Source: a virus (taxonomy: Duplodnaviria; Heunggongvirae; Uroviricota; Caudoviricetes). From it: DNA of 11,101 bases. Positions 710-9,475 of this stretch are shown piece by piece; positions within the stretch are counted from its first letter, which is position 1; every line of letters begins with the position of its first letter. Below the pieces are notes generated by a model. That model saw only the letters and a list, made by a program, of their open reading frames with translations, ran no database searches and was not told the origin of the DNA. The DNA lies in IMG/VR virus record IMGVR_UViG_2663763286_000016, positions 1 to 11,101 of that record. One strand, written 5' to 3'. The translations under genes and the position numbers were made by a program.

Positions 710-894
710 TGCCAGCATCCTTTTTGTATCGGACGTAAACGGGCCAACATTGAAAGAATGCATATTTTATTTAATAGCTCCCGTTCGTGTTTTCTCTTGT
801 TAATGGCATCTTCAGTAAATACAGGGTTACTGATAGTGACACCAATTTCAAAACAACCTTCAGACGTATTAACGTTTGGTAATAACGTTTCCAT
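706..894 (-). CDS. Small hypothetical protein (62 aa), translationally coupled to neighbours
   Basis: ORF track 706..894. GAGGA 7 nt upstream of the ATG at 894, overlapping the end of the Rha gene; its stop overlaps the next start (ATGA). No family recognised. Confidence 0.4.
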   Translation of the reverse strand: METLLPNVNTSEGCFEIGVTISNPVFTEDAINKRKHERELLNKICILSMLARLRPIQKGCWQ

Positions 895-904
895 TATCGC
901 GTCC

Positions 905-1462
905 TCAACAATGAATTTTTAGTAATTGCTCCACAGTCATATTTTTAATTGCGCTCCGGTTTACAAGAGTCCAGCCTTGTTTCTCCAGATAAAACTGGAA
1001 GGTATCCAGGGTGCAGACCATTGCGCCGTCCGGAACGGTTTCAGTGAATTTGATATTGCCGTGTTCGTCGAGACGGATAACCAGGGTACGTCCGTCCCCG
1101 TGAATCATTTTGTCGGGAGACGGGGCGTTATTCTGGCGCAGTTCTTTCTCCATGCGATCGAACTCAGCGATGTAGGCTTCTTTAAATGCAGCGGCTTTTT
1201 TGCTGGTGAAGCCCATCACCAGGAAAACGAAGCCGTTTTTGGTGATTTGGTACATTGGGAGTTTGCGACCGGTTGAGTCGGTATATTCGCTCGACACAAA
1301 ATTGTGCTCAGTGAATTTTGCTGAACAGTCCAGATTGCGAATTTTATCCAACACTCGTTCGTGGCGTTTACCAAAGAACTCAGCGATCGCAATAGACGTA
1401 GTGACAGCGCGTCCATTTTCGATGGTTACGTCAGGGTGAGAAAGGGTATGGATAGTAGCCAT
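905..1462 (-). CDS. Phage regulatory protein, Rha family (antirepressor-like), about 185 aa
   Basis: N-terminus MATIHTLSHPDVTIENGRAVTTSIAIAEFFGKRHERVLDKIRNLD...YQITKNGFVFLVMGFTSKKAAAFKEAYIAEFDRME matches the Rha-domain pattern as remembered. ATG at 1462..1460 with GAGG 8 nt upstream. The longer track ORF (to 1759) would read through an intrinsic terminator, so the shorter start is preferred. Confidence 0.8.
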   Translation of the reverse strand: MATIHTLSHPDVTIENGRAVTTSIAIAEFFGKRHERVLDKIRNLDCSAKFTEHNFVSSEYTDSTGRKLPMYQITKNGFVFLVMGFTSKKAAAFKEAYIAEFDRMEKELRQNNAPSPDKMIHGDGRTLVIRLDEHGNIKFTETVPDGAMVCTLDTFQFYLEKQGWTLVNRSAIKNMTVEQLLKIHC

Positions 1463-1491
1463 GATGGCAGCCTCGATAGTCAGTTTAAATA

Positions 1492-1531
1492 ACTCACCAC
1501 CAAGGCTTTCCACGACCATAAGGGTGGTGAG
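1492..1531. promoter_or_regulatory. 9-bp perfect inverted repeat (CTCACCACC ... GGTGGTGAG, 22-bp spacer) just upstream of the Rha start
   Basis: Read directly from the sequence at 1492-1500 and 1523-1531. Function as operator or RNA hairpin is unknown. Confidence 0.3.
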
Positions 1532-1630
1532 ACGTACAGGGGTGGAAATACCGGTGACTACCGAAACCGGCCAGCCTTTCGGCTGCCCTGCACGCCCCAC
1601 CATAATCTGAATGTGGCTGTGCATTACGCA

Positions 1631-1655
1631 TAAAAAAACCGCATGAGCGCGGTTA
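1631..1655 (-). terminator. Rho-independent terminator for leftward transcription
   Basis: On the minus strand: AACCGC-GCTCAT-GCGGTT hairpin (5-6 bp GC-rich stem) followed by a run of seven T (plus-strand A run 1632-1638). Lies between the pL-like operon and the Rha gene. Confidence 0.6.
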
Positions 1656-2297
1656 TGCGCAGTAGTCATCATCGGGTTTCCACGCCCGGCACCCGCTTTA
1701 TGAGGTGCAGGTGCACTATAATTCCACCCGTTCTGGTTTTCAATAGCTACATTCAACATTTTCTCTTACCCTTCATCACCGAAGTGAACTTTGTTGATGC
1801 AGTGCCTGGTGCCTCCAGGTGACGTTAACCAGTTAACAATTAACGCCGGATACAGAGAATCCACCCATAACACTGTTTTTGGTTTTAACTGTTCCGCGTG
1901 CGCTGAGCCGCATTCACCGCATCACAAAATTCACTTTAAAAAGGGCGGACATCAGTTCATGGGCAAACAGATGCCGCCAAACGTCACCAGAAAATTGATA
2001 ACAGAGGGCGTTGCAGCGGGGTTGTCACTTAAGCGTATGGTCAACCTGACAACCCGGTGTCCTCAACGGGGAAGGAATAACCCCGCCATACTTACCGCCG
2101 CGCCATTTCGCGGAGTGCCACAACCGGAAGCGCACGGTCGACGAAAATTTAACGACAGGCTATCTATGAACCAGCTACCTCGCCGTGCGCTTTCGCGTTA
2201 TGGTCTGACTTTTCAGGGAAATATCCTTTCAGTAAACTGTCAGTGCCGGATGCTTACCCGTGTCCGGCGCACGCACTCTACCTCACCCGTGAATAAA

Positions 2298-2684
2298 TTA
2301 ATGATTAATTGATATTTTATAGGTGGATTCAACTTTCCCATCGGATGTGTGATGCTTTAAATCACAGGAATTAATACTGCTTGCTGTAAAGTGATTTTCA
2401 AGGGGGGCTATTCGAATCCCTTTCTTTTTCATTAACAGGCCAAATCCCTTATTAATGATGTCCATTAATTCCAGAAAGTATTTTTCATGTAAATCCTGGT
2501 TATCAGAGAGCTGCTTCTCTTCGTATAGCCCGATAAAGGCTCGGCGCACGTTACCGGATATATTATCGATGGTTTCTTTTTCTACGGTACTCAGGTCAGG
2601 AGTAGCCAATTGAGAACGAACTATATTCGCTGCCATTTCCTGGAATGGTATTGGTAAATCTTTAAATTCCATCGTCAACCTCAT
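2298..2684 (-). CDS. Hypothetical early-left protein (about 124-128 aa), AT-rich gene
   Basis: ORF track 2298..2684. ATG at 2684..2682 overlaps the upstream stop (TGATG); an alternative ATG at 2672 has a GAGG Shine-Dalgarno (MEFKDLPIPFQEM...). No family recognised. Confidence 0.55.
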   Translation of the reverse strand: MRLTMEFKDLPIPFQEMAANIVRSQLATPDLSTVEKETIDNISGNVRRAFIGLYEEKQLSDNQDLHEKYFLELMDIINKGFGLLMKKKGIRIAPLENHFTASSINSCDLKHHTSDGKVESTYKISINH

Positions 2685-2836
2685 CAGTCAGTGTTTCTGG
2701 CTAACCAGCGACGCGCGCCAGATTCGGTTTTAAGCGTTTTGCTTTTGGTATACGTCATTGCGGTGAACGTACCGTCCTGGTTTGGGAACACGCCGCACAC
2801 CAGAGATTCGTTGTTGCCAAGATCGATAGTATCCAT
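2684..2836 (-). CDS. Small hypothetical protein (50 aa), first gene of the pL-like operon
   Basis: Internal ATG at 2836..2834 of track ORF 2684..2890 (MDTIDLGNNESLVCGVFPNQDGTFTAMTYTKSKTLKTESGARRWLARNTD), GAGG 5 nt upstream. The track start at 2890 is a GTG that would sit only about 17 nt below the predicted transcription start. Confidence 0.45.
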   Translation of the reverse strand: MDTIDLGNNESLVCGVFPNQDGTFTAMTYTKSKTLKTESGARRWLARNTD

Positions 2837-2886
2837 GCTGACCTCATTTCCCCTTAACGCCGGGGTAGCGGAACTGTTTGCTGAGA

Positions 2887-2900
2887 ACACCGTGCGGTGT
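2887..2900. promoter_or_regulatory. 14-bp palindrome ACACCGTGCGGTGT in the leader of the pL-like transcript
   Basis: Perfect 6-bp inverted arms with a 2-nt centre, read directly. Could be a protein-binding site or an RNA hairpin. Confidence 0.3.
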
Positions 2901-2913
2901 CTTGGTGGAGATT

Positions 2914-2942
2914 AATTTAGAATAACCTAACAAATGTGGCAA
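2914..2942 (-). promoter_or_regulatory. pL-like sigma70 promoter directing leftward transcription
   Basis: On the minus strand: TTGCCA (plus 2942..2937), 17-bp spacer, TAAATT (plus 2919..2914). One TTAG-N6-CTAA palindrome overlaps the -10 and spacer, a second lies just upstream of the -35. Confidence 0.5.
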
Positions 2943-2967
2943 GTATTTTTTGTTAGATTGGTCTAAC
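2917..2967. promoter_or_regulatory. Two putative operator palindromes of TTAG-N6-CTAA type (OL-like)
   Basis: TTAGAATAACCTAA at 2917-2930 and GTTAGATTGGTCTAAC at 2952-2967. The same motif recurs twice between the repressor and cro-like genes. Confidence 0.5.
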
Positions 2968-3004
2968 AAAAAGAGTGAGGGAATCTAAGTAACTGAAAGG
3001 AGTG

Positions 3005-3412
3005 TTATTTTATTGATTTGTTTTTACGTGCTTTAAGCATTTCTTCGAAGAGTTTATTGAAATTCTCTACTCTTGCGCGCATTTCAGACAGTAAGGCTTC
3101 CTGCTCGGAGGAGGGAAGAGCATCGAATAATTCGATCAATTCTTTGTGGCTGGGAGTTAACTCGGTTTCCACATGAAGTTCTTGTGCTGGCACTGGTGCC
3201 TTGTCTTCGTCACCAAACATTAGCCATGTAGGCGAGCACTTCAGCGCATCAGCTAAAGCAAATAACCGCTTCCCGACCGGTTGGGTTTCGTCTCTTTCCC
3301 ATTGTGAAATTGTGACGTGAGCTACCCCAGCGAGGCGTGCAGCTTCTCGTTGTGTTAGGCGTAATTCTTTTCGTCGTGCCAGAACTCGCTGGCCTAGGGT
3401 TCTTGTATCCAT
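3005..3412 (-). CDS. Phage repressor, XRE-family helix-turn-helix, 135 aa, no S24 peptidase domain
   Basis: N-terminus LGQRVLARRKELRLTQREAARLAGVAHVTISQWERDETQP is a classic Cro/CI-type HTH. It is divergent from the cro-like gene. No Shine-Dalgarno before the ATG at 3412 and a TAGAAT -10 about 9 nt upstream suggest a near-leaderless transcript, as for lambda cI from pRM. Confidence 0.8.
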   Translation of the reverse strand: MDTRTLGQRVLARRKELRLTQREAARLAGVAHVTISQWERDETQPVGKRLFALADALKCSPTWLMFGDEDKAPVPAQELHVETELTPSHKELIELFDALPSSEQEALLSEMRARVENFNKLFEEMLKARKNKSIK

Positions 3413-3414
3413 AG

Positions 3415-3478
3415 TTAGGTAATTCTAATTTTTCTTGACTTAGGTATCCCGCGCACATTACCGTTAGGAATATCTAAC
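3415..3478. promoter_or_regulatory. OR-like region: two TTAG-N6-CTAA palindromes plus candidate divergent promoters
   Basis: TTAGGTAATTCTAA at 3415-3428 and GTTAGGAATATCTAAC at 3463-3478. Minus-strand TAGAAT -10 (plus 3427..3422) overlaps the first palindrome. Plus-strand TTGACT at 3435-3440 is a candidate -35; its -10 was not convincingly resolved. Confidence 0.45.
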
Positions 3479-3492
3479 AAGAGGGGGCTTTG

Positions 3493-3720
3493 ATGCTTAA
3501 AGTTGACGCAATTACTTTTTTTGGCAGCAAAACAAAACTTGCCAATGCCGCAGGAGTGAAACTGGCAAGTGTTGCTGCATGGGGGGAACTGGTTCCTGAA
3601 GGTCGCGCGATGCGCCTGCAAGAGGCATCCGGCGGGGAACTTCAGTACGACCCCAAAGTTTATGACGAATATCGTAAGGCAAAGCGGGCGGGGCGGTTGA
3701 ACAATGAAAATCACCCCTGA
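3493..3720 (+). CDS. Cro-like DNA-binding protein (YdaS-like), 75 aa
   Basis: ATG at 3493 with GAGGGGG 5 nt upstream (the track start at 3490 is TTG). Sequence LKVDAITFFGSKTKLANAAGVKLASVAAWGELVPEGRAMRLQEASGGEL fits the YdaS/Cro pattern as remembered. Position divergent from the repressor. Confidence 0.75.
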   Translation: MLKVDAITFFGSKTKLANAAGVKLASVAAWGELVPEGRAMRLQEASGGELQYDPKVYDEYRKAKRAGRLNNENHP

Positions 3721-4225
3721 ACAGGTTTGTGAGGCTCTGGATGCCTGGGTATGCCGACCAGGAATGACACAGGAGCAGGCGACGATATTAATCACGGAAG
3801 CATTCTGGGCTCTGAAAGAACGCCCGAACATCGATGTTCAACGCGTCACGTTTAATGATGGCGAGGTTGATCAACGGGCGTTGGGCGTTAACCGGGTGAA
3901 GATATTCGAACGCTGGAAAGCTATCGACACCAGGGATAAGCGGGAAAAATTCACGGCGCTGATTCCGGCAATTATGGAGGCTATCCGGATCAGCGATTTC
4001 AGGTTGTATTGTGAAATTACTGACGGAAAAAGCATTACGTACATGATCGCCGGGTTAAACAAAGAATATGGTGATGTGGTGGAGTCCGGGCTGCTTTTTG
4101 CGGATCCATCTGTTGTGGAACGTGAGACTGACGAGCTTATAGAAAAAGCTATTGCTTTCAAGCATGCGTATCGTCAGCAATACCAACAAAAAGCTGGATG
4201 GAATTATGAGCCTTCTTTTTGCTGA
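3704..4225 (+). CDS. YdaT-like / cII-position early regulator, 173 aa
   Basis: ORF track 3704..4225, overlapping the cro-like stop. Central ALIPAIMEAI region resembles YdaT-family proteins of the Rac prophage (recollection, moderate certainty). Confidence 0.65.
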   Translation: MKITPEQVCEALDAWVCRPGMTQEQATILITEAFWALKERPNIDVQRVTFNDGEVDQRALGVNRVKIFERWKAIDTRDKREKFTALIPAIMEAIRISDFRLYCEITDGKSITYMIAGLNKEYGDVVESGLLFADPSVVERETDELIEKAIAFKHAYRQQYQQKAGWNYEPSFC

Positions 4226-5045
4226 ACGCCCACTGGTTATAAACACACAGCTTGCGATGAAGATTGGCTTAAATGAAGCCATTGTGTTGCAGCAGTTGCA
4301 TTACTGGTTGAGAGATACCAGTTCCGGTATAGAATGTGACGGGGTTCGCTGGATTTATAACACAACAGAACAATGGCTGGAACAGTTCCCGTTCTGGTCA
4401 GAGTCAACGTTAAAACGCGCATTTGCAAGTCTGAAAACGCTGGGGCTTTTGCGTTGCGAAAAGCTCAACAAATCAAAGCGTGATATGACTAATTTTTACA
4501 CGATTAATTACGAGAGTGAGCTTTTAGATGGTGGCAAAGTGAGCGAATCCATCAGGTCAAAATGCGCCGCTCCATCAGGTCAAAATGACACGATGGAAGA
4601 GGTCAAAATGGCACGCTCCATTGGTTCAAAACGACCCAATGTCATCGGGTCAAAATGGCCTGATGATCTTACAGAGAATACAACAGAGATTACTACAGAG
4701 AATAAAAACACTTCTCGTCCGGAAGCTTCGCAACCGGACCCGCAGACGGCTGAACAGGATTTTTTAACCCGACACCCTGACGCGGTTGTGTTCAGTGCGA
4801 AAAAACGCCAGTGGGGAAGTCAGGAAGATTTGGCGTGCGCACAGTGGATCTGGGGACGAATCGTGAGTCTTTACGAGCAGGCTGCCAGCGATGATGGCGA
4901 GATCACGCGACCGAAAGAACCAAACTGGACCGCATGGGCCAATGACGTGCGCACAATGCGGATGCTGGATGGCAGAAGCCACAGACAAATTTGCGAAATG
5001 TTTGGTCGGGTACAGCGAGATCCATTCTGGGTAAAAACATCATGA
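4206..5045 (+). CDS. Replication initiation protein, lambda O-like, with the origin iterons inside the gene
   Basis: N-terminal winged-helix-like region (EAIVLQQLHYWLRDTSSGIECDGVRWIYNTTEQWLEQFPFWSESTLKRAFASLKTLGLL), then a linker that encodes the iteron array. Start uncertain: ATG at 4206 (MSLLF...) is preferred over the track start at 4152 to limit overlap with the upstream gene. Confidence 0.65.
   Translation: MSLLFAERPLVINTQLAMKIGLNEAIVLQQLHYWLRDTSSGIECDGVRWIYNTTEQWLEQFPFWSESTLKRAFASLKTLGLLRCEKLNKSKRDMTNFYTINYESELLDGGKVSESIRSKCAAPSGQNDTMEEVKMARSIGSKRPNVIGSKWPDDLTENTTEITTENKNTSRPEASQPDPQTAEQDFLTRHPDAVVFSAKKRQWGSQEDLACAQWIWGRIVSLYEQAASDDGEITRPKEPNWTAWANDVRTMRMLDGRSHRQICEMFGRVQRDPFWVKTS
4548..4657. 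repeat. Iteron array (about five direct repeats with core GGTCAAAATG, 22-25 bp spacing): probable replication origin
   Basis: Cores at 4555-4564, 4578-4587, 4601-4610, 4623-4633 (degenerate GGTTCAAAACG) and 4648-4657. The 17-mer TCCATCAGGTCAAAATG occurs identically at 4548 and 4571. Followed by an A/T-rich stretch with two TACAGAGAATA repeats (4670-4704). Confidence 0.7.
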
Positions 5046-5170
5046 GCCCGTCAAAGCTTCGCGAAAAATGGGACGACCTGGTCATCCGCCTGGGGCGTTC
5101 ACCTGTACAGTGTTGTGTGAATCATATTTCTGAACCGGATACCGAAATTCCGCCTGGTTTCAGGGGATAA
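5042..5170 (+). CDS. Small ORF (42 aa) overlapping the O-like stop (ATGA); possible remnant or small replication-associated protein
   Basis: ATG at 5042-5044 overlaps the TGA at 5043-5045. Translated by hand: MSPSKLREKWDDLVIRLGRSPVQCCVNHISEPDTEIPPGFRG. Below the track size cutoff. No family recognised. Confidence 0.3.
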   Translation: MSPSKLREKWDDLVIRLGRSPVQCCVNHISEPDTEIPPGFRG

Positions 5171-5210
5171 GTGGTGATTTTAGGGCATAAAGTAATGTTC
5201 AGGAGGACTT

Positions 5211-5618
5211 ATGGCAAAAGTATTTACAAAGGAAGAGCGGGAAAAAATTAAAGGACAGGTGGTGGAACTCGTGCGCCAGAGCGGTCGTGAGACGTTACGG
5301 CAACTGGAAGCTAAAACAGGTGCGACAAGATATCTGATGAGCGTTCTTGCCAGAGAGCTGGTTGCCAGTGGTGATGTATATCACTCTGGCTATGGGGTGT
5401 TCCCGTCAGAACGGGCTCGTAAGGACTGGCAAAACGCCCGCAAAAAACTCTCGAGGGCAAAGGTGAAGAAACCTGTTGTGGTTGATCCGGGCCTTATCTG
5501 GACATTACCCGACGGAGAAATACGCCGCTACGACAGGCGTATGAACATAATCTGTCGCGAGTGCCGGAAGAGCGAAGTTATGCAGCGTGTATTGGCGTTC
5601 TATCAGGGATATGCCTAG
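5211..5618 (+). CDS. Hypothetical phage protein, 135 aa
   Basis: ORF track 5211..5618 with a strong AGGAGG 4 nt upstream of the ATG. Basic protein; no family recognised. Confidence 0.65.
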   Translation: MAKVFTKEEREKIKGQVVELVRQSGRETLRQLEAKTGATRYLMSVLARELVASGDVYHSGYGVFPSERARKDWQNARKKLSRAKVKKPVVVDPGLIWTLPDGEIRRYDRRMNIICRECRKSEVMQRVLAFYQGYA

Positions 5619-5664
5619 AATTGTCACAGGTAATGAAATTAAAGAGTATTGGTTCGGATATGAA

Positions 5665-5693
5665 TTGACATTTTCGCGGCACAGAGCTAAAAA
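5665..5693 (+). promoter_or_regulatory. Candidate sigma70 promoter in the AT-rich region upstream of the SIR2-like gene
   Basis: TTGACA at 5665-5670, 17-bp spacer, TAAAAA at 5688-5693. The 370-bp intergenic region contains several other -10-like hexamers. Confidence 0.3.
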
Positions 5694-5986
5694 TAGCCTA
5701 CTTGTTGGTTTTGTGTGAAAAGCAGACATTTTGAGGCTCAGGATTTGTTATCAAATAAGACCAATACTTATCTATATTAATACACATTAAATACTGTGCA
5801 ATACATTATTGCATTTTATTAGATAAGCGATATTTAGGGAAAAGAAAAGTCATAGAAAACAGGCCGCTATTTGTTGTTGGATTTTATAGGCTATATCTAG
5901 ATTATCTTGCCACTGCGGTCTCTGTTTACCTAACAGCTTGGGCTTCTTTGCATGCAAGTTTGTAATAACAAGTGTAATCAAACGGA

Positions 5987-7018
5987 ATGTCTATTAATCC
6001 TAAACTTAAGCGTATCGCGCGACGCTATCCAGCGTTATTCCAATATGAGTCCCCCTATATGGCAAGAAAATTAATAATATTCGGCAACGGTCTCGGTATG
6101 GCTTTAGATCCTGCTCACTTCTCCTTAGACAGAGCGTTGGAAGAAATTTGGCATCGCCCCAATTTTTTAAAAGATATCCACAAGCAACTTATCGAGCGTT
6201 GTCTTCAGCGGCAAGGTCCACCAGAAGGAGAACATGAGTTGGATACCCTTCACCAGGCTGTCACATATTGTAAAGCTCTTGCTCAAATTGGAGAGGGGAA
6301 CGTGCATTGGCTTACTGACGATGGACTAAACTTCCCCAAAATTACCGCCACTTATATTCACAAAGTTGCAACCAGGTTGCATAATTACGATAAAGGTTTG
6401 CCACAAAGATTCGAAAATGCGCTTGTGGAGTTTGTAAAGAACACACACTCACATATCGCGACATTAAACTATGACAAATTATTATACAATTCATTCATAG
6501 ATAATGATATATTCAACGGGTATGATGGGGTTTTAGTTGATGGGATGCTAAGCCACGGATTTTCCTCTGCAGCGCTCGAACGGAAATACAATCGTAGGTT
6601 TGGTTATTATTTGCACTTGCATGGTTCACCACTATTTATTAATCAGCATGAAAATGTTTTAAAACTTTCACGCTCACAACTTACTCTTGACATAGATGAA
6701 CCTAGTGAGCATATAGTGTTAACTCATATAAAAAGAAAACCGTCAGTTATAGCAGCATCTAATGTTCTTTCTACGTACTGGGATTATTTGCAGTTTGCAT
6801 TATTTGAATCAGAAGAAATAATATTGTTTGGTTACTCTGGTCTCGATATTCACCTTAACCTGCTTATTCGACCTTACCTAACCTCTAAGCCTTTAAGAGT
6901 AATTGAGTGGAGCGGTGCTGGTGAACAAAACGCTCGTGAGATATATTGGAAAAACCAGTTGAGACGGGAAGTTACTGTAATTAGGTTGGATAACATCACT
7001 GATTTTATTGATTGGTAG
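5987..7018 (+). CDS. SIR2-like protein (SIR2_2 / defence-type sirtuin fold), 343 aa; candidate NAD-consuming defence effector
   Basis: Glycine-rich N-terminal motif LIIFGNGLGMAL, TLNYD motif (residues 159-163), HLHGS (210-214) and a C-terminal LFGYSGLD motif, matching the spacing and residues of SIR2_2-family domains as in ThsA/DSR proteins (from memory). The gene looks markedly AT-rich. Start uncertain: 5987 or the in-frame ATG at 6059. Confidence 0.65.
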   Translation: MSINPKLKRIARRYPALFQYESPYMARKLIIFGNGLGMALDPAHFSLDRALEEIWHRPNFLKDIHKQLIERCLQRQGPPEGEHELDTLHQAVTYCKALAQIGEGNVHWLTDDGLNFPKITATYIHKVATRLHNYDKGLPQRFENALVEFVKNTHSHIATLNYDKLLYNSFIDNDIFNGYDGVLVDGMLSHGFSSAALERKYNRRFGYYLHLHGSPLFINQHENVLKLSRSQLTLDIDEPSEHIVLTHIKRKPSVIAASNVLSTYWDYLQFALFESEEIILFGYSGLDIHLNLLIRPYLTSKPLRVIEWSGAGEQNAREIYWKNQLRREVTVIRLDNITDFIDW

Positions 7019-7178: not shown

Positions 7179-7279
7179 TTTTATATTGGCGAGGTGACGG
7201 GAGTTAAGTAGAATTGCTGCGGGTGCTTGAGGCTATCTGCCTCAGGCATGAACACCAAAAGGCAGATAGAGAAAAGCCC

Positions 7280-7342
7280 CAGTTAACATTACGCGTCCTG
7301 CAAGACGCTTAACATTAATCTGAGGCCATATCTATGCGACAC
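7280..7342 (-). ncRNA. Putative Sok-like antisense RNA (hypothetical; extent approximate)
   Basis: Candidate minus-strand promoter: TTGACC (plus 7376..7371), 16-bp spacer, GCTAAT (plus 7354..7349). This would start an antisense transcript covering the start of the short leader ORF, as in hok/sok loci. No clear terminator was identified. Confidence 0.2.
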
Positions 7343-7393
7343 ATAGAGATTAGCCTCTTACGGACCAAAAGGTCAAGGAGAAGCAGGCTATGA
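7334..7393 (+). CDS. Short leader ORF (19 aa) coupled to hok; mok-like by position
   Basis: ATG at 7334 sits inside a hairpin (TCTATG cgaca CATAGA). The TGA at 7391-7393 overlaps the hok ATG at 7390-7392. Confidence 0.3.
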   Translation: MRHIEISLLRTKRSRRSRL

Positions 7394-7545
7394 AGCAGCA
7401 AAAGGCGATGTTAATCGCCCTGATCGTCATCTGTTTAACCGTCATAGTGACGGCACTGGTAACGAGGAAAGACCTCTGCGAGGTACGAATCCGAACCGGC
7501 CAGACGGAGGTCGCTGTCTTCACAGCTTACGAACCTGAGGAGTAA
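7390..7545 (+). CDS. hokD: Hok/Gef-family type I toxin, 51 aa (matches HokD/RelF as remembered)
   Basis: Hand translation MKQQKAMLIALIVICLTVIVTALVTRKDLCEVRIRTGQTEVAVFTAYEPEE. AAGGAG 9 nt upstream. Upstream leader is rich in long-range complementary segments. Confidence 0.88.
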   Translation: MKQQKAMLIALIVICLTVIVTALVTRKDLCEVRIRTGQTEVAVFTAYEPEE

Positions 7546-7614
7546 GAGACCCGGCGGGGGAGTAATCTCCCGCCACCTCTGATGTGCCAGGCATCCTCAA
7601 CGCACCCGCACTTA

Positions 7615-7635
7615 ACCCGCTTCGGCGGGTTTTTG
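7615..7635 (+). terminator. Rho-independent terminator after hok
   Basis: CCCGC-TTCG-GCGGG hairpin followed by TTTTT. The identical 20-mer recurs at 9449. Confidence 0.7.
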
Positions 7636-7645
7636 CATTGTCTGG

Positions 7646-7674
7646 TTGACAAAAATAGAAAAATGCGAAAATAT
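7646..7674 (+). promoter_or_regulatory. Candidate promoter for the 216-aa / HTH-ImmA module
   Basis: Perfect -35 TTGACA at 7646-7651; the -10 is imperfect (AAATAT at 17 bp or TATGTG at 20 bp). Sits immediately after the first terminator copy. Confidence 0.35.
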
Positions 7675-7709: not shown

Positions 7710-8360
7710 ATGAATGAAAATCAGTTAGCTCCTTGTTGGGAATTTCAACCTTATCTTGCTGAAAACTATGTTCGCCACTTGTTGGCGGAGATCGCTAACG
7801 TACTTGAGCAGCTGTACTATCATAAGCACGCATTAGACAGCAACTGGTCTGAAGGTGTAAGGGCTTATGATTGGGTCAGAAATCATCTTATTCAAAATGA
7901 AGATGCAATTCCTGGCCTTGAGATGATTTCCAAGGGGTTGGACTATGTAGTTGCTTTAAATAAAGTTCCGCTACAATTTACCAAAGATTGCATTAATAAC
8001 CCCAAAAAGAAACATCGTCTGCGTCGAAATAAAGTAGAGTATGAGCAGCTCTCATTGTTTGGTGATGTTGAGGCTGAGCAAGATATTACATGGCGAGTCA
8101 TAGCTGAGCCTTTTTTATCCGAAGAGGGCGATGGTGAATTAGAGTCCACACTGCCTCGTTGGGAGGTAGCTCTTGTTGGATTTAATACTTATGGTGCTCA
8201 GATTAGTATAGTTTCTCATCAATCTACAGCATCGATGCCGCTTATGCCTCTTGATTATAACACACTCCCTGACGAAGCGGAGATTAATAAGGTGCCTCTT
8301 CGTCGGCGTACGAAGGATAAAGATTTGGATGTGAGCAGTGATGGAACATCAGGTGAATAA
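7710..8360 (+). CDS. Hypothetical protein, 216 aa, first gene of a two-gene module; contains a QLSLF pentapeptide
   Basis: ORF track 7710..8360. No family recognised. Residues 113-117 are QLSLF, flanked by a basic run (NPKKKHRLRRNK) and an acidic run. The 3' end overlaps the start of the next gene. Confidence 0.65.
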   Translation: MNENQLAPCWEFQPYLAENYVRHLLAEIANVLEQLYYHKHALDSNWSEGVRAYDWVRNHLIQNEDAIPGLEMISKGLDYVVALNKVPLQFTKDCINNPKKKHRLRRNKVEYEQLSLFGDVEAEQDITWRVIAEPFLSEEGDGELESTLPRWEVALVGFNTYGAQISIVSHQSTASMPLMPLDYNTLPDEAEINKVPLRRRTKDKDLDVSSDGTSGE

Positions 8361-9444
8361 CTTCACTGAGTATCGGGGTGATAAGCTCAAACTAGCGAGA
8401 ATGGCTGTTGGGCTTTCTTGTGAAGAGTTAGCCGAAAAAATTGGCAAGACAAAGCAATTCGTTAGCAAACTGGAGAAGGGGTGCAGGCCATCGGAGCAAT
8501 GTCTTGAGTTAATATCTTCAGCGCTTATGATTAAGTCCAGTTTTCTTTTTACTGAACGAAAATACGCTCTGGAAAGTGATGTCTGCCATTTTCGGAGTAA
8601 GAAGTCCAGGACTCAAACGCTGACTAATAGTGTATTGGCCAGGGCTGAGATTCTTAATATTATAATTTCTGCTGTTGAAGGTGAAATCGAATTTCCTGAC
8701 GTTAACATACCGGAGCACCCAGGGGCTGAATTACTTACTCCGAATGATATTGAGCGAGTGGCAGAAGATTGTCGCCGTGCCTGGAATTTAGGTCTTGGCC
8801 CTATATCATCAATGGTTAAATTGGCGGAGAGTTTAGGGGTAATCGTTGCGCATGTTACGGGAGTCGATGATCGTGTTGATGCTTTTACTGTTCACAATAA
8901 CAGGCCTGTTATCATCAGGAACAATGTTAAAAAAAGCATATGTAGATTTCGCTCTGATTTAGGTCATGAATTAGGGCATTTAGTAATGCATGAGGGCATA
9001 ACGACAGGTGATAAACTTACGGAATCACAAGCCGATCACTTTTCGAGCGCCTTATTAGTTCCCAGGTTATCTTTCATTAAAGAATTTCCACGAATACGAG
9101 GTAAGCAATTCGACTGGAATGCTCTGGTTGAATTTAAACTTAGATGGAAAATCAGCCTTAAAATGTGTATTTATCGAGCCAGCGCATTAGGCTTATTGAC
9201 CCAGGAACAGGCAAGAACTGGCTATATGCATCTTAATTCCAGAGGGTATACGAGAGTTGAACCTGGTGATGAACTTTTGCGCCCTGAAGAACCCGGCATG
9301 CTGGCCGAGGCGATTGAAATGCTGGATGATGCAACCTGGCTAAGAATTCTTATGAAAACTGGCTTGAGCCAAGATTTAATTCGTGAGTTGTTCTCCATCA
9401 ACAGACCTATTACAAATCCAAGAAATATTTTCCAGATTGTTTGA
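8341..9444 (+). CDS. Fusion of XRE-family HTH and ImmA/IrrE-type zinc metallopeptidase (COG2856-like), about 367 aa
   Basis: N-terminal HTH (LKLARMAVGLSCEELAEKIGKTKQFVSKLEKG) and an HEXXH motif (HELGH, residues 210-214, around nt 8965-8979). ATG at 8341; the track start at 8338 is GTG. Confidence 0.8.
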   Translation: MEHQVNNFTEYRGDKLKLARMAVGLSCEELAEKIGKTKQFVSKLEKGCRPSEQCLELISSALMIKSSFLFTERKYALESDVCHFRSKKSRTQTLTNSVLARAEILNIIISAVEGEIEFPDVNIPEHPGAELLTPNDIERVAEDCRRAWNLGLGPISSMVKLAESLGVIVAHVTGVDDRVDAFTVHNNRPVIIRNNVKKSICRFRSDLGHELGHLVMHEGITTGDKLTESQADHFSSALLVPRLSFIKEFPRIRGKQFDWNALVEFKLRWKISLKMCIYRASALGLLTQEQARTGYMHLNSRGYTRVEPGDELLRPEEPGMLAEAIEMLDDATWLRILMKTGLSQDLIRELFSINRPITNPRNIFQIV

Positions 9445-9448
9445 GTAT

Positions 9449-9475
9449 ACCCGCTTCGGCGGGTTTTTTGTTTTT
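9449..9475 (+). terminator. Rho-independent terminator after the HTH-ImmA gene
   Basis: The same CCCGC-TTCG-GCGGG hairpin, followed by TTTTTTGTTTTT. Starts 5 nt after the stop codon. Confidence 0.7.

Follow-up and report, generated by a model that had tools for sequence, protein, structure and literature searches.

The 11,101-nucleotide (nt) window analysed here (IMG/VR record IMGVR_UViG_2663763286_000016) is a segment of a lambdoid prophage, in which cI/cro/cII-like, O-like, and Ren-like genes are followed by a SIR2-like gene, hok/sok, and then an open reading frame (ORF) encoding a protein of 216 amino acids (aa), whose internal pentapeptide QLSLF is the subject of this report. The 216-aa protein matches the PADLOC model RmrT PDLC03929 (E 4.6e-25) and PHROG 5786 (8e-85), and scans against Pfam and NCBIfam (the latter at E<=0.01) assigned it to no family. 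The next gene is co-directional and overlaps the first one by 20 nt. Its product matches PADLOC PDLC03943 (E 6.2e-105) and, above the Pfam cutoffs, HTH_3 (30.1 bits) and Peptidase_M78 (42.6 bits), with an XRE-type helix-turn-helix (HTH) at aa ~14-63 and an M78/ImmA-IrrE Zn-peptidase domain containing HELGH. Because both proteins match the RmrT/RmrA models and the partner is an HTH-M78 protein encoded with a 20-nt overlap, the two genes are rmrT and rmrA of a RosmerTA toxin-antitoxin (TA)/anti-phage module (Table 1). A toxin gene also precedes an M78 gene in Xenorhabdus and Pseudomonas homologues. In the literature searched, neither WP_001004956.1 nor WP_000401168.1 is mentioned.

Table 1. Features of the window discussed in the text (nt positions within the window; aa numbering of the encoded protein).
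Feature	Position	Strand	Basis or remark
rmrT, 216-aa Rosmer toxin (RefSeq WP_001004956.1, annotated hypothetical protein)	7710..8360	+	PADLOC RmrT PDLC03929
Basic run PKKKHRLRRNK, aa 98-108, upstream of motif	8001..8033	+	translation; P98 conserved family-wide
E110 of RmrT	8037..8039	+	
Candidate beta-clamp-binding motif QLSLF, aa 113-117	8046..8060	+	sequence, homologue alignments, consensus of PMC12309361
Acidic spacer GDVEAEQD, aa 118-125	8061..8084	+	length varies in family; precedes conserved W128-R129 strand
rmrA, 367-aa antitoxin (WP_000401168.1)	8341..9444	+	Pfam HTH_3 and Peptidase_M78; PADLOC RmrA PDLC03943
HELGH of RmrA, aa 209-213	8965..8979	+	
20-nt direct repeat, left copy ACCCGCTTCGGCGGGTTTTT; terminator hairpin after hok/sok, left cassette edge	7615..7634	+	hairpin and repeat scan
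20-nt direct repeat, right copy; terminator hairpin directly after rmrA	9449..9468	+	hairpin and repeat scan
Possible rmrTA promoter: perfect -35 TTGACA (7646-7651), 17-nt spacer, weak -10 AAATAT (7669-7674)	7646..7674	+	read by eye
hok/sok, complete type I TA	7221..7545		sok RNA, Rfam RF01794, 107.5 bits
Hok ORF	7390..7545		PF01848
343-aa protein with SIR2_2 domain	5987..7018	+	PF13289, 26.1 bits (cutoff 24.5)
C4 antisense RNA	1520..1708	-	RF01695, 79 bits; positions cover C4 together with the adjoining isrK
284-aa ORF	905..1759	-	

An initial annotation, made from the sequence alone, had singled out QLSLF as a perfect match to the pentapeptide with which bacterial proteins dock onto the sliding clamp DnaN (beta clamp), lying between a strongly basic and an acidic run, and had proposed that the protein may bind or poison the host clamp. 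The pentapeptide, encoded by CAGCTCTCATTGTTT, and its setting are as described, with PKKKHRLRRNK before it and GDVEAEQD after it. Clamp-binding peptides conform to the consensus QL[S/D]LF or QxxLF, in which positions 1, 4, and 5 are critical; a QLSLF peptide binds the Escherichia coli clamp at a sub-micromolar level, and QLSLPL is a tight clamp binder (PMC12309361). QLSLF of RmrT satisfies the QL[SD]LF/QLxLx[LF] pattern given in the same study, and no second QL[SD]LF occurs when the whole window is translated in six frames (22,198 residues). A short match of this kind could have arisen by chance and have no specific role, since about 2.8 exact QL[SD]LF matches are expected by chance in a whole E. 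coli proteome. For a single protein, however, the expectation is far lower: 3.2e-4 exact matches in RmrT with its own composition and 4.6e-4 with an E. coli-like composition, and an exact match appeared in 70 of 200,000 shuffled RmrT sequences.

Conservation bears more directly on the chance explanation. A search of 1.8 billion representatives with the RmrT profile returned 69 proteins of ~200 aa, the named members of which belong to Aeromonas, Vibrio, Photobacterium, and Pseudomonas; those relatives that were checked match PDLC03929. Q113, L116, F117, and G118 are invariant in 19 relatives sharing 53-84% identity, and the Xenorhabdus relative has QMTLF at the motif site. In an alignment of 62 members, drawn from Enterobacterales, Vibrio, Aeromonas, and Pseudomonas, the homologous position is occupied by Q-h-x-h-[FLMIWY] or Q-h-x-h-x-[FLMIWY] in 47 (28 a pentapeptide, 17 a hexapeptide only, and two both), compared with a mean of 1.3 and a maximum of 6 in the shuffle control, and a further eight have QxxLF with a non-hydrophobic residue at position 2. 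The hexapeptide forms include QLSLPL, QLSLDL, QLSLAF, QLNLAF, and QLLLDF. In a divergent subset, Q113 is found in 44/56 and L116 in 40/56 sequences (with F or M in others), F and L alternate at positions 117/118, and P98, E110, Q113, and L116 are the only conserved residues in the loop spanning aa 96-125. The motif is kept at the same site down to ~20% identity, while the distance from its end to the equivalent of W128 ranges from 0 to 21 residues; the family's net charge averages +2.0 in the 13 residues before the motif and -1.7 in the spacer after it.

The initial annotation had named conservation in homologues as a check on its proposal. Across Gammaproteobacteria, the loop is otherwise variable and the motif is its best-conserved element, and the variation at the site follows known penta- and hexapeptide clamp-binding forms. 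Such indel-tolerant alternation is typical of clamp-binding motifs and would be unexpected in a packed helix. A chance pentapeptide is therefore very improbable: same-site conservation to ~20% identity, together with the recurrence in other RmrT groups described below, effectively refutes it.

We surveyed toxins whose genes precede that of an RmrA homologue in phages and plasmids, and a comparable motif recurs in the middle of the toxins of two other RmrT groups. One group (PDLC03933/34/37/38/40), with members in Enterococcus, an integrative and conjugative element (ICE) of Streptococcus pneumoniae, Lacticaseibacillus phage R24.2, Escherichia phage Tritos, and a Zymomonas plasmid, shows 'PKKA[IL]hR...' followed by Q[YF][ND]LF; xxx[LI]F is present in 53/53 members and Q occupies position 1 in 46 of them. 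The Enterococcus toxin has QYNLF, the S. pneumoniae ICE toxin QFDLF, the Tritos toxin LPKQALYRAVYANQNYELNFGDE, and the Zymomonas plasmid toxin an exact QLSLF at aa 126-130. In a third group (PDLC03930), QLSFF, QTSFI, and QMSML fall in one aligned column, with phiCD27 (QLSFF), phiCT9441A, and a faecal phage as members. No homology between the three toxin groups could be established by pairwise hhalign (probabilities <1%), and a common origin is therefore not claimed; between the RmrT family and the PDLC03933/34/37/38/40 group, only the 25 columns of PKK...QLSLF align (E 0.07, probability <1%). The RmrA models, in turn, cross-match between groups at E 1e-30 to 1e-105. The shared motif would thus reflect either very remote homology that preserved this element alone or independent acquisition, and on either origin the alignments indicate that the element is under selection.

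Since RmrA is common to all RmrT groups, the linear motif that they share may just as well be what RmrA recognises. In that case, the QhxLF element would be a handle for RmrA, either a binding peptide or an M78 cleavage site, and its likeness to a clamp ligand would be coincidental. The toxin groups share nothing detectable beyond the motif stretch, and M78/ImmA-type peptidases act on specific partner sites, the example being ImmA-ImmR (as summarised in PMC10440598). However, such a handle does not predict the full clamp consensus, the penta-/hexapeptide alternation, or the Hda-type QLSLPL, and one Rosmer toxin, RipA, is already tied genetically to the DnaN pocket. We therefore consider an RmrA handle with a coincidental resemblance unlikely. 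The two functions are compatible, and RmrA could mask a clamp-binding motif.

AlphaFold2 (AF2) modelling of RmrT from a 13-sequence alignment gave a mean predicted local distance difference test (pLDDT) score of 62, with aa 96-123 below 50. The 68-sequence alignment raised the mean pLDDT to 82 (predicted template modelling score, pTM, 0.71) and yielded a model that opens with two helices at the N terminus and continues with three strands (70-92), a pair of short helices (101-104 and 108-115), and three further strands (127-171); the weakest 10-residue blocks in the central model are 111-120 (pLDDT 65) and 141-150 (pLDDT 61). Foldseek returned no significant matches for the shallow model against PDB or for the deeper model against BFVD, and the secondary-structure model shows no membrane segment. 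D43, R51, D93/94, E110, R129, and E133 are near-invariant in the family, whereas a conserved (D/E)xK is missing from the predicted strands and with it the catalytic D...(D/E)xK signature of PD-(D/E)xK nucleases; for this reason, the modelled core may be a restriction-endonuclease-like (RE-like) domain whose active site is unusual or has been lost.

This architecture raises another explanation, in which the motif forms a helix with a structural or catalytic role in an RE-like (PD-(D/E)xK/RecB-type) domain, E110 and Q113 would be directed into an active site, as in the QxxxY helix of the RecB family, and the protein is a nuclease or DNA binder that does not touch the clamp. E110, which the clamp model leaves unexplained, speaks for it, and the alternation and indel tolerance of the site fit a packed helix poorly; we regard it as rather improbable. 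One specific version, with Q113 as the Q of a RecB-type QxxxY, was ruled out, because the D/ExK residues are absent and position 117 is occupied by a residue other than Y.

Independent genetics on a Rosmer toxin of another sequence family strengthens the clamp idea. RipA (Spr1630) of S. pneumoniae causes replication stress; the suppressor mutations affect five residues in the hydrophobic pocket of DnaN (H183, L185, Y249, Y333, and L371), and the dnaN suppressors abolish the RipA-DnaN two-hybrid signal (Maziero et al., PLoS Genet 2025, PMC12795458). Because the 216-aa protein is itself a RosmerTA toxin, the earlier proposal that it binds or poisons the host clamp is supported, by sequence comparison and by analogy with RipA. 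Taken together, the alignments suggest that RmrT acts by seizing the sliding clamp, and we put the probability that QLSLF is a functional beta-clamp-binding motif of RmrT at roughly 0.55.

Several observations weigh against this interpretation. Fifteen of the 62 family members (24%) miss the strict motif pattern. The most conserved residue of the family is E110 (51/56), three residues before the motif; it belongs to no known clamp-binding motif, is lacking in other RmrT groups, and, together with D43, D93/94, R129, and E133, may mark an active site near the motif. The deep-alignment AF2 model shows aa 108-115 as helical, and part of the motif may therefore be packed on the core. RmrA is the partner that every RmrT group shares, and the motif could serve its recognition. 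Finally, a clear QxxLF is missing at the equivalent site of RipA, the only one of these toxins with an experimental link to the clamp: its candidates are weak (an N-terminal NQDLF, QFPLV after KGKKRL, and QMELV) and are not conserved in the one Staphylococcus homologue compared. The text of PMC12795458 contains no mention of a motif, CBM, or AlphaFold, and names no binding motif.

We infer the toxicity of RmrT, its neutralisation by RmrA, DnaN binding, and the effect on replication, and envisage the following course. By inference from other Rosmer systems, RmrA, translated from the overlapping frame, would keep RmrT harmless and would probably repress the operon through its HTH. A charged loop joining two strands of the RE-like core would expose QLSLF. 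A trigger, e.g., infection or loss of RmrA, would free RmrT, which would then insert the motif into the hydrophobic cleft of DnaN, so that subsite II receives Q113/L114 and subsite I receives L116/F117. Docked in this way, RmrT would compete for the clamp with Pol III and further clients and might tether its RE-like domain to clamp-loaded DNA, the outcome being an arrest of clamp-dependent replication of both host and phage.

A broader proposal, which we advance tentatively and rate below even odds, is that the clamp-binding motif unifies most of the sequence-unrelated Rosmer toxin families (PADLOC 03929; 03933/34/37/38/40; 03930) as clamp-docking effectors, possibly clamp-tethered RE-like proteins, with the motif masked by the conserved RmrA and immunity resulting from the shutdown of clamp-dependent host and phage replication. 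If true, it would provide the missing molecular handle for RipA-type toxins. It is already known that the module is a catalogued member of Rosmer, a widespread anti-phage and toxin-antitoxin system, and clamp targeting has been published for another Rosmer toxin family. Within the literature searched, three elements appear to be new: a canonical, conserved clamp-binding motif in a common E. coli toxin family, the recurrence of the motif across sequence-unrelated Rosmer toxin groups, and the putative RE-like core of RmrT. The statement that a toxin acts on DnaN thereby becomes a residue-level hypothesis that can be addressed by three point mutations and one peptide (NKVEYEQLSLFGDVE). If the hypothesis is correct, the recurrence of the motif would make clamp capture a general immune or addiction strategy of mobile elements, and these toxins would be a source of natural clamp ligands of high affinity, which are of interest in the design of antibacterials.

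With regard to its setting, rmrTA is a moron with a terminator on either side, carried in the stretch from hok to Q of a lambdoid E. coli prophage. The two copies of a perfect 20-nt direct repeat, spaced by 1834 nt, bracket the rmrTA cassette exactly, and in related phages that lack the cassette the match is confined to the left hairpin (nt 7600-7635), which suggests that the cassette was inserted at, or along with, a duplicated terminator. In megablast and tblastn searches with the toxin against the phage collection, no homologue was found, the only match being to the 36-nt terminator. Of 5,426 complete E. coli genomes, 237 contain at least 80% of the 1.9-kb cassette. A consensus promoter scan upstream of rmrT flagged no promoter, including at TTGACA (7646), which was noted by eye. 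Phage Tritos (814-4629) has the same neighbourhood, composed of hokD, a toxin, an ImmA/IrrE antitoxin, ydfU/DUF968, and Q, and its Rosmer toxin belongs to a different group (PDLC03933); the presence of a different Rosmer pair at the same hokD/ydfU-Q position identifies the site as a moron hotspot for Rosmer variants in lambdoid phages.

Damaged copies of the toxin gene were also encountered. Frameshifts or internal deletions disrupt five RmrT copies from E. coli, Salmonella, and Plesiomonas, one E. coli strain (NZ_CP069459.1) has an IS5 insertion in the rmrTA cassette, and four ripA copies are frameshifted in metagenomes. Such recurrent damage is consistent with selection against an active toxin. 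Elsewhere in the window, the complete hok/sok lies just upstream of the cassette, and the 343-aa SIR2_2 protein, encoded between the Ren-like gene and hok/sok, gives weak PADLOC matches to Aga_SIR2/PDC-S21 and is, on the basis of its domain, a candidate single-gene defence moron. The C4 antisense RNA adjoins isrK (RF01394, 64 bits); the two RNAs lie upstream of and within the 284-aa ORF, and the region constitutes an antirepressor control module of the P1/P7 style within a lambdoid prophage.

Among known systems, the pair belongs with RosmerTA (Millman et al. 2022; PADLOC RmrT/RmrA models), with matches for both genes and the same architecture of a Zn-peptidase antitoxin and a toxin. Its discoverers described a Zn-peptidase antitoxin and a toxin whose function was unknown, and their attempt to delete rmrA failed (bioRxiv 10.1101/2022.05.11.491447). 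Rosmer toxins are diverse: RmrT-D5 of Gordonia phage Kita, the one whose mechanism is characterised by Ernits et al. (2023, PMC10440598), depolarises membranes, whereas the RmrT studied here has no predicted membrane segment and bears the clamp motif instead.

RipA/RipB (Spr1630/Spr1629) resemble RmrT/RmrA in that the toxin gene lies directly upstream of a gene for an antitoxin with HTH and ImmA-type Zn-peptidase domains, and RipA, like RmrT, has ~220-240 aa and no Pfam domain; control of RipA requires ClpX. The PADLOC families differ (03931/03945 for RipA/RipB and 03929/03943 for the pair described here). As a positive control, a RipA orthologue was recovered from the published primer MM30 by exact DNA search (S. 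mitis, 3874-4605); it scores 221.7 bits on NF052238 (cutoff 125) and matches PADLOC RmrT PDLC03931, and the RipB orthologue scores 464 bits on NF052239 (cutoff 335). RmrT of this prophage is not a member of the RipA family, as it has no match to NF052238 (NCBIfam, E<=0.01), its partner reaches 155.9 bits on NF052239, below the cutoff of 335, and hhalign of the RmrT family against RipA detected nothing. For RipA relatives, a metagenome scan returned mostly near-identical or frameshifted copies and a viral scan none, and Spr1629 was absent among the best 120 matches of a protein search seeded with the S. pneumoniae ICE RmrA. S. pneumoniae/S. mitis also carry a second Rosmer pair, distinct from RipAB, which adjoins type IV secretion system (T4SS)/TraG genes (S. 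pneumoniae ICE-like contig, 4001-5783) and consists of a 223-aa toxin with QFDLF and a partner scoring 236.8 bits on NF052239, below the cutoff.

The E101_02645/02644 pair of E. coli E101 likewise comprises a prophage toxin and a downstream antitoxin, later counted as Rosmer (Rousset et al. 2021, bioRxiv 10.1101/2020.05.25.114553). Identity of our pair with this clpP-dependent TA was ruled out, given that the proteins are WP_001179380.1/WP_000481765.1 as opposed to WP_001004956.1/WP_000401168.1 and that residue 46 of RmrT is W, not T. The clpP-suppressor mutation of the E101 toxin is T46S (same source). T46 of RipA sits in the segment 'YAWT46RPNHI', which is conserved in the Staphylococcus homologue, and because T46 of the E101 toxin fits this 'YAWT46R' segment, that toxin may be of the RipA type (PDLC03931). 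RmrT has a vaguely similar 'YDWVRNHL' at aa 53-60.

The motif of RmrT resembles those of canonical clamp clients, such as PolC (QLSLF, identical), Hda-type proteins (QLSLPL), and DnaE (QMGLF/QADMF), and it shares with them the conservation at positions 1 and 4 and a hydrophobic residue at position 5 or 6. Further client motifs are those of Pol II (QLGLF), UmuC (QLNLF), Pol IV (QLVLGL), and MutS (QMSLL). The motif of RmrT is internal or located in a loop, like that of Pol III alpha; the MutS motif is placed in this way too. Unlike these clients, RmrT is a mobile-element toxin and not a replication or repair enzyme, and its conserved E110 has no counterpart in them.

SocA, the antitoxin of SocAB, is a ClpXP adaptor, and SocAB is a different type of TA. 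According to the summary in PMC12795458, SocB of Caulobacter crescentus blocks replication through the clamp, and its suppressors lie in the same hydrophobic pocket; the authors of that study liken the action of RipA to that of SocB and report no similarity between the two proteins. MuC of phage Mu, a transcription activator rather than a toxin and unrelated to RmrT, is reported to be a phage protein that exploits the host DnaN via a clamp-binding motif (PNAS 2026, PMC12867686).

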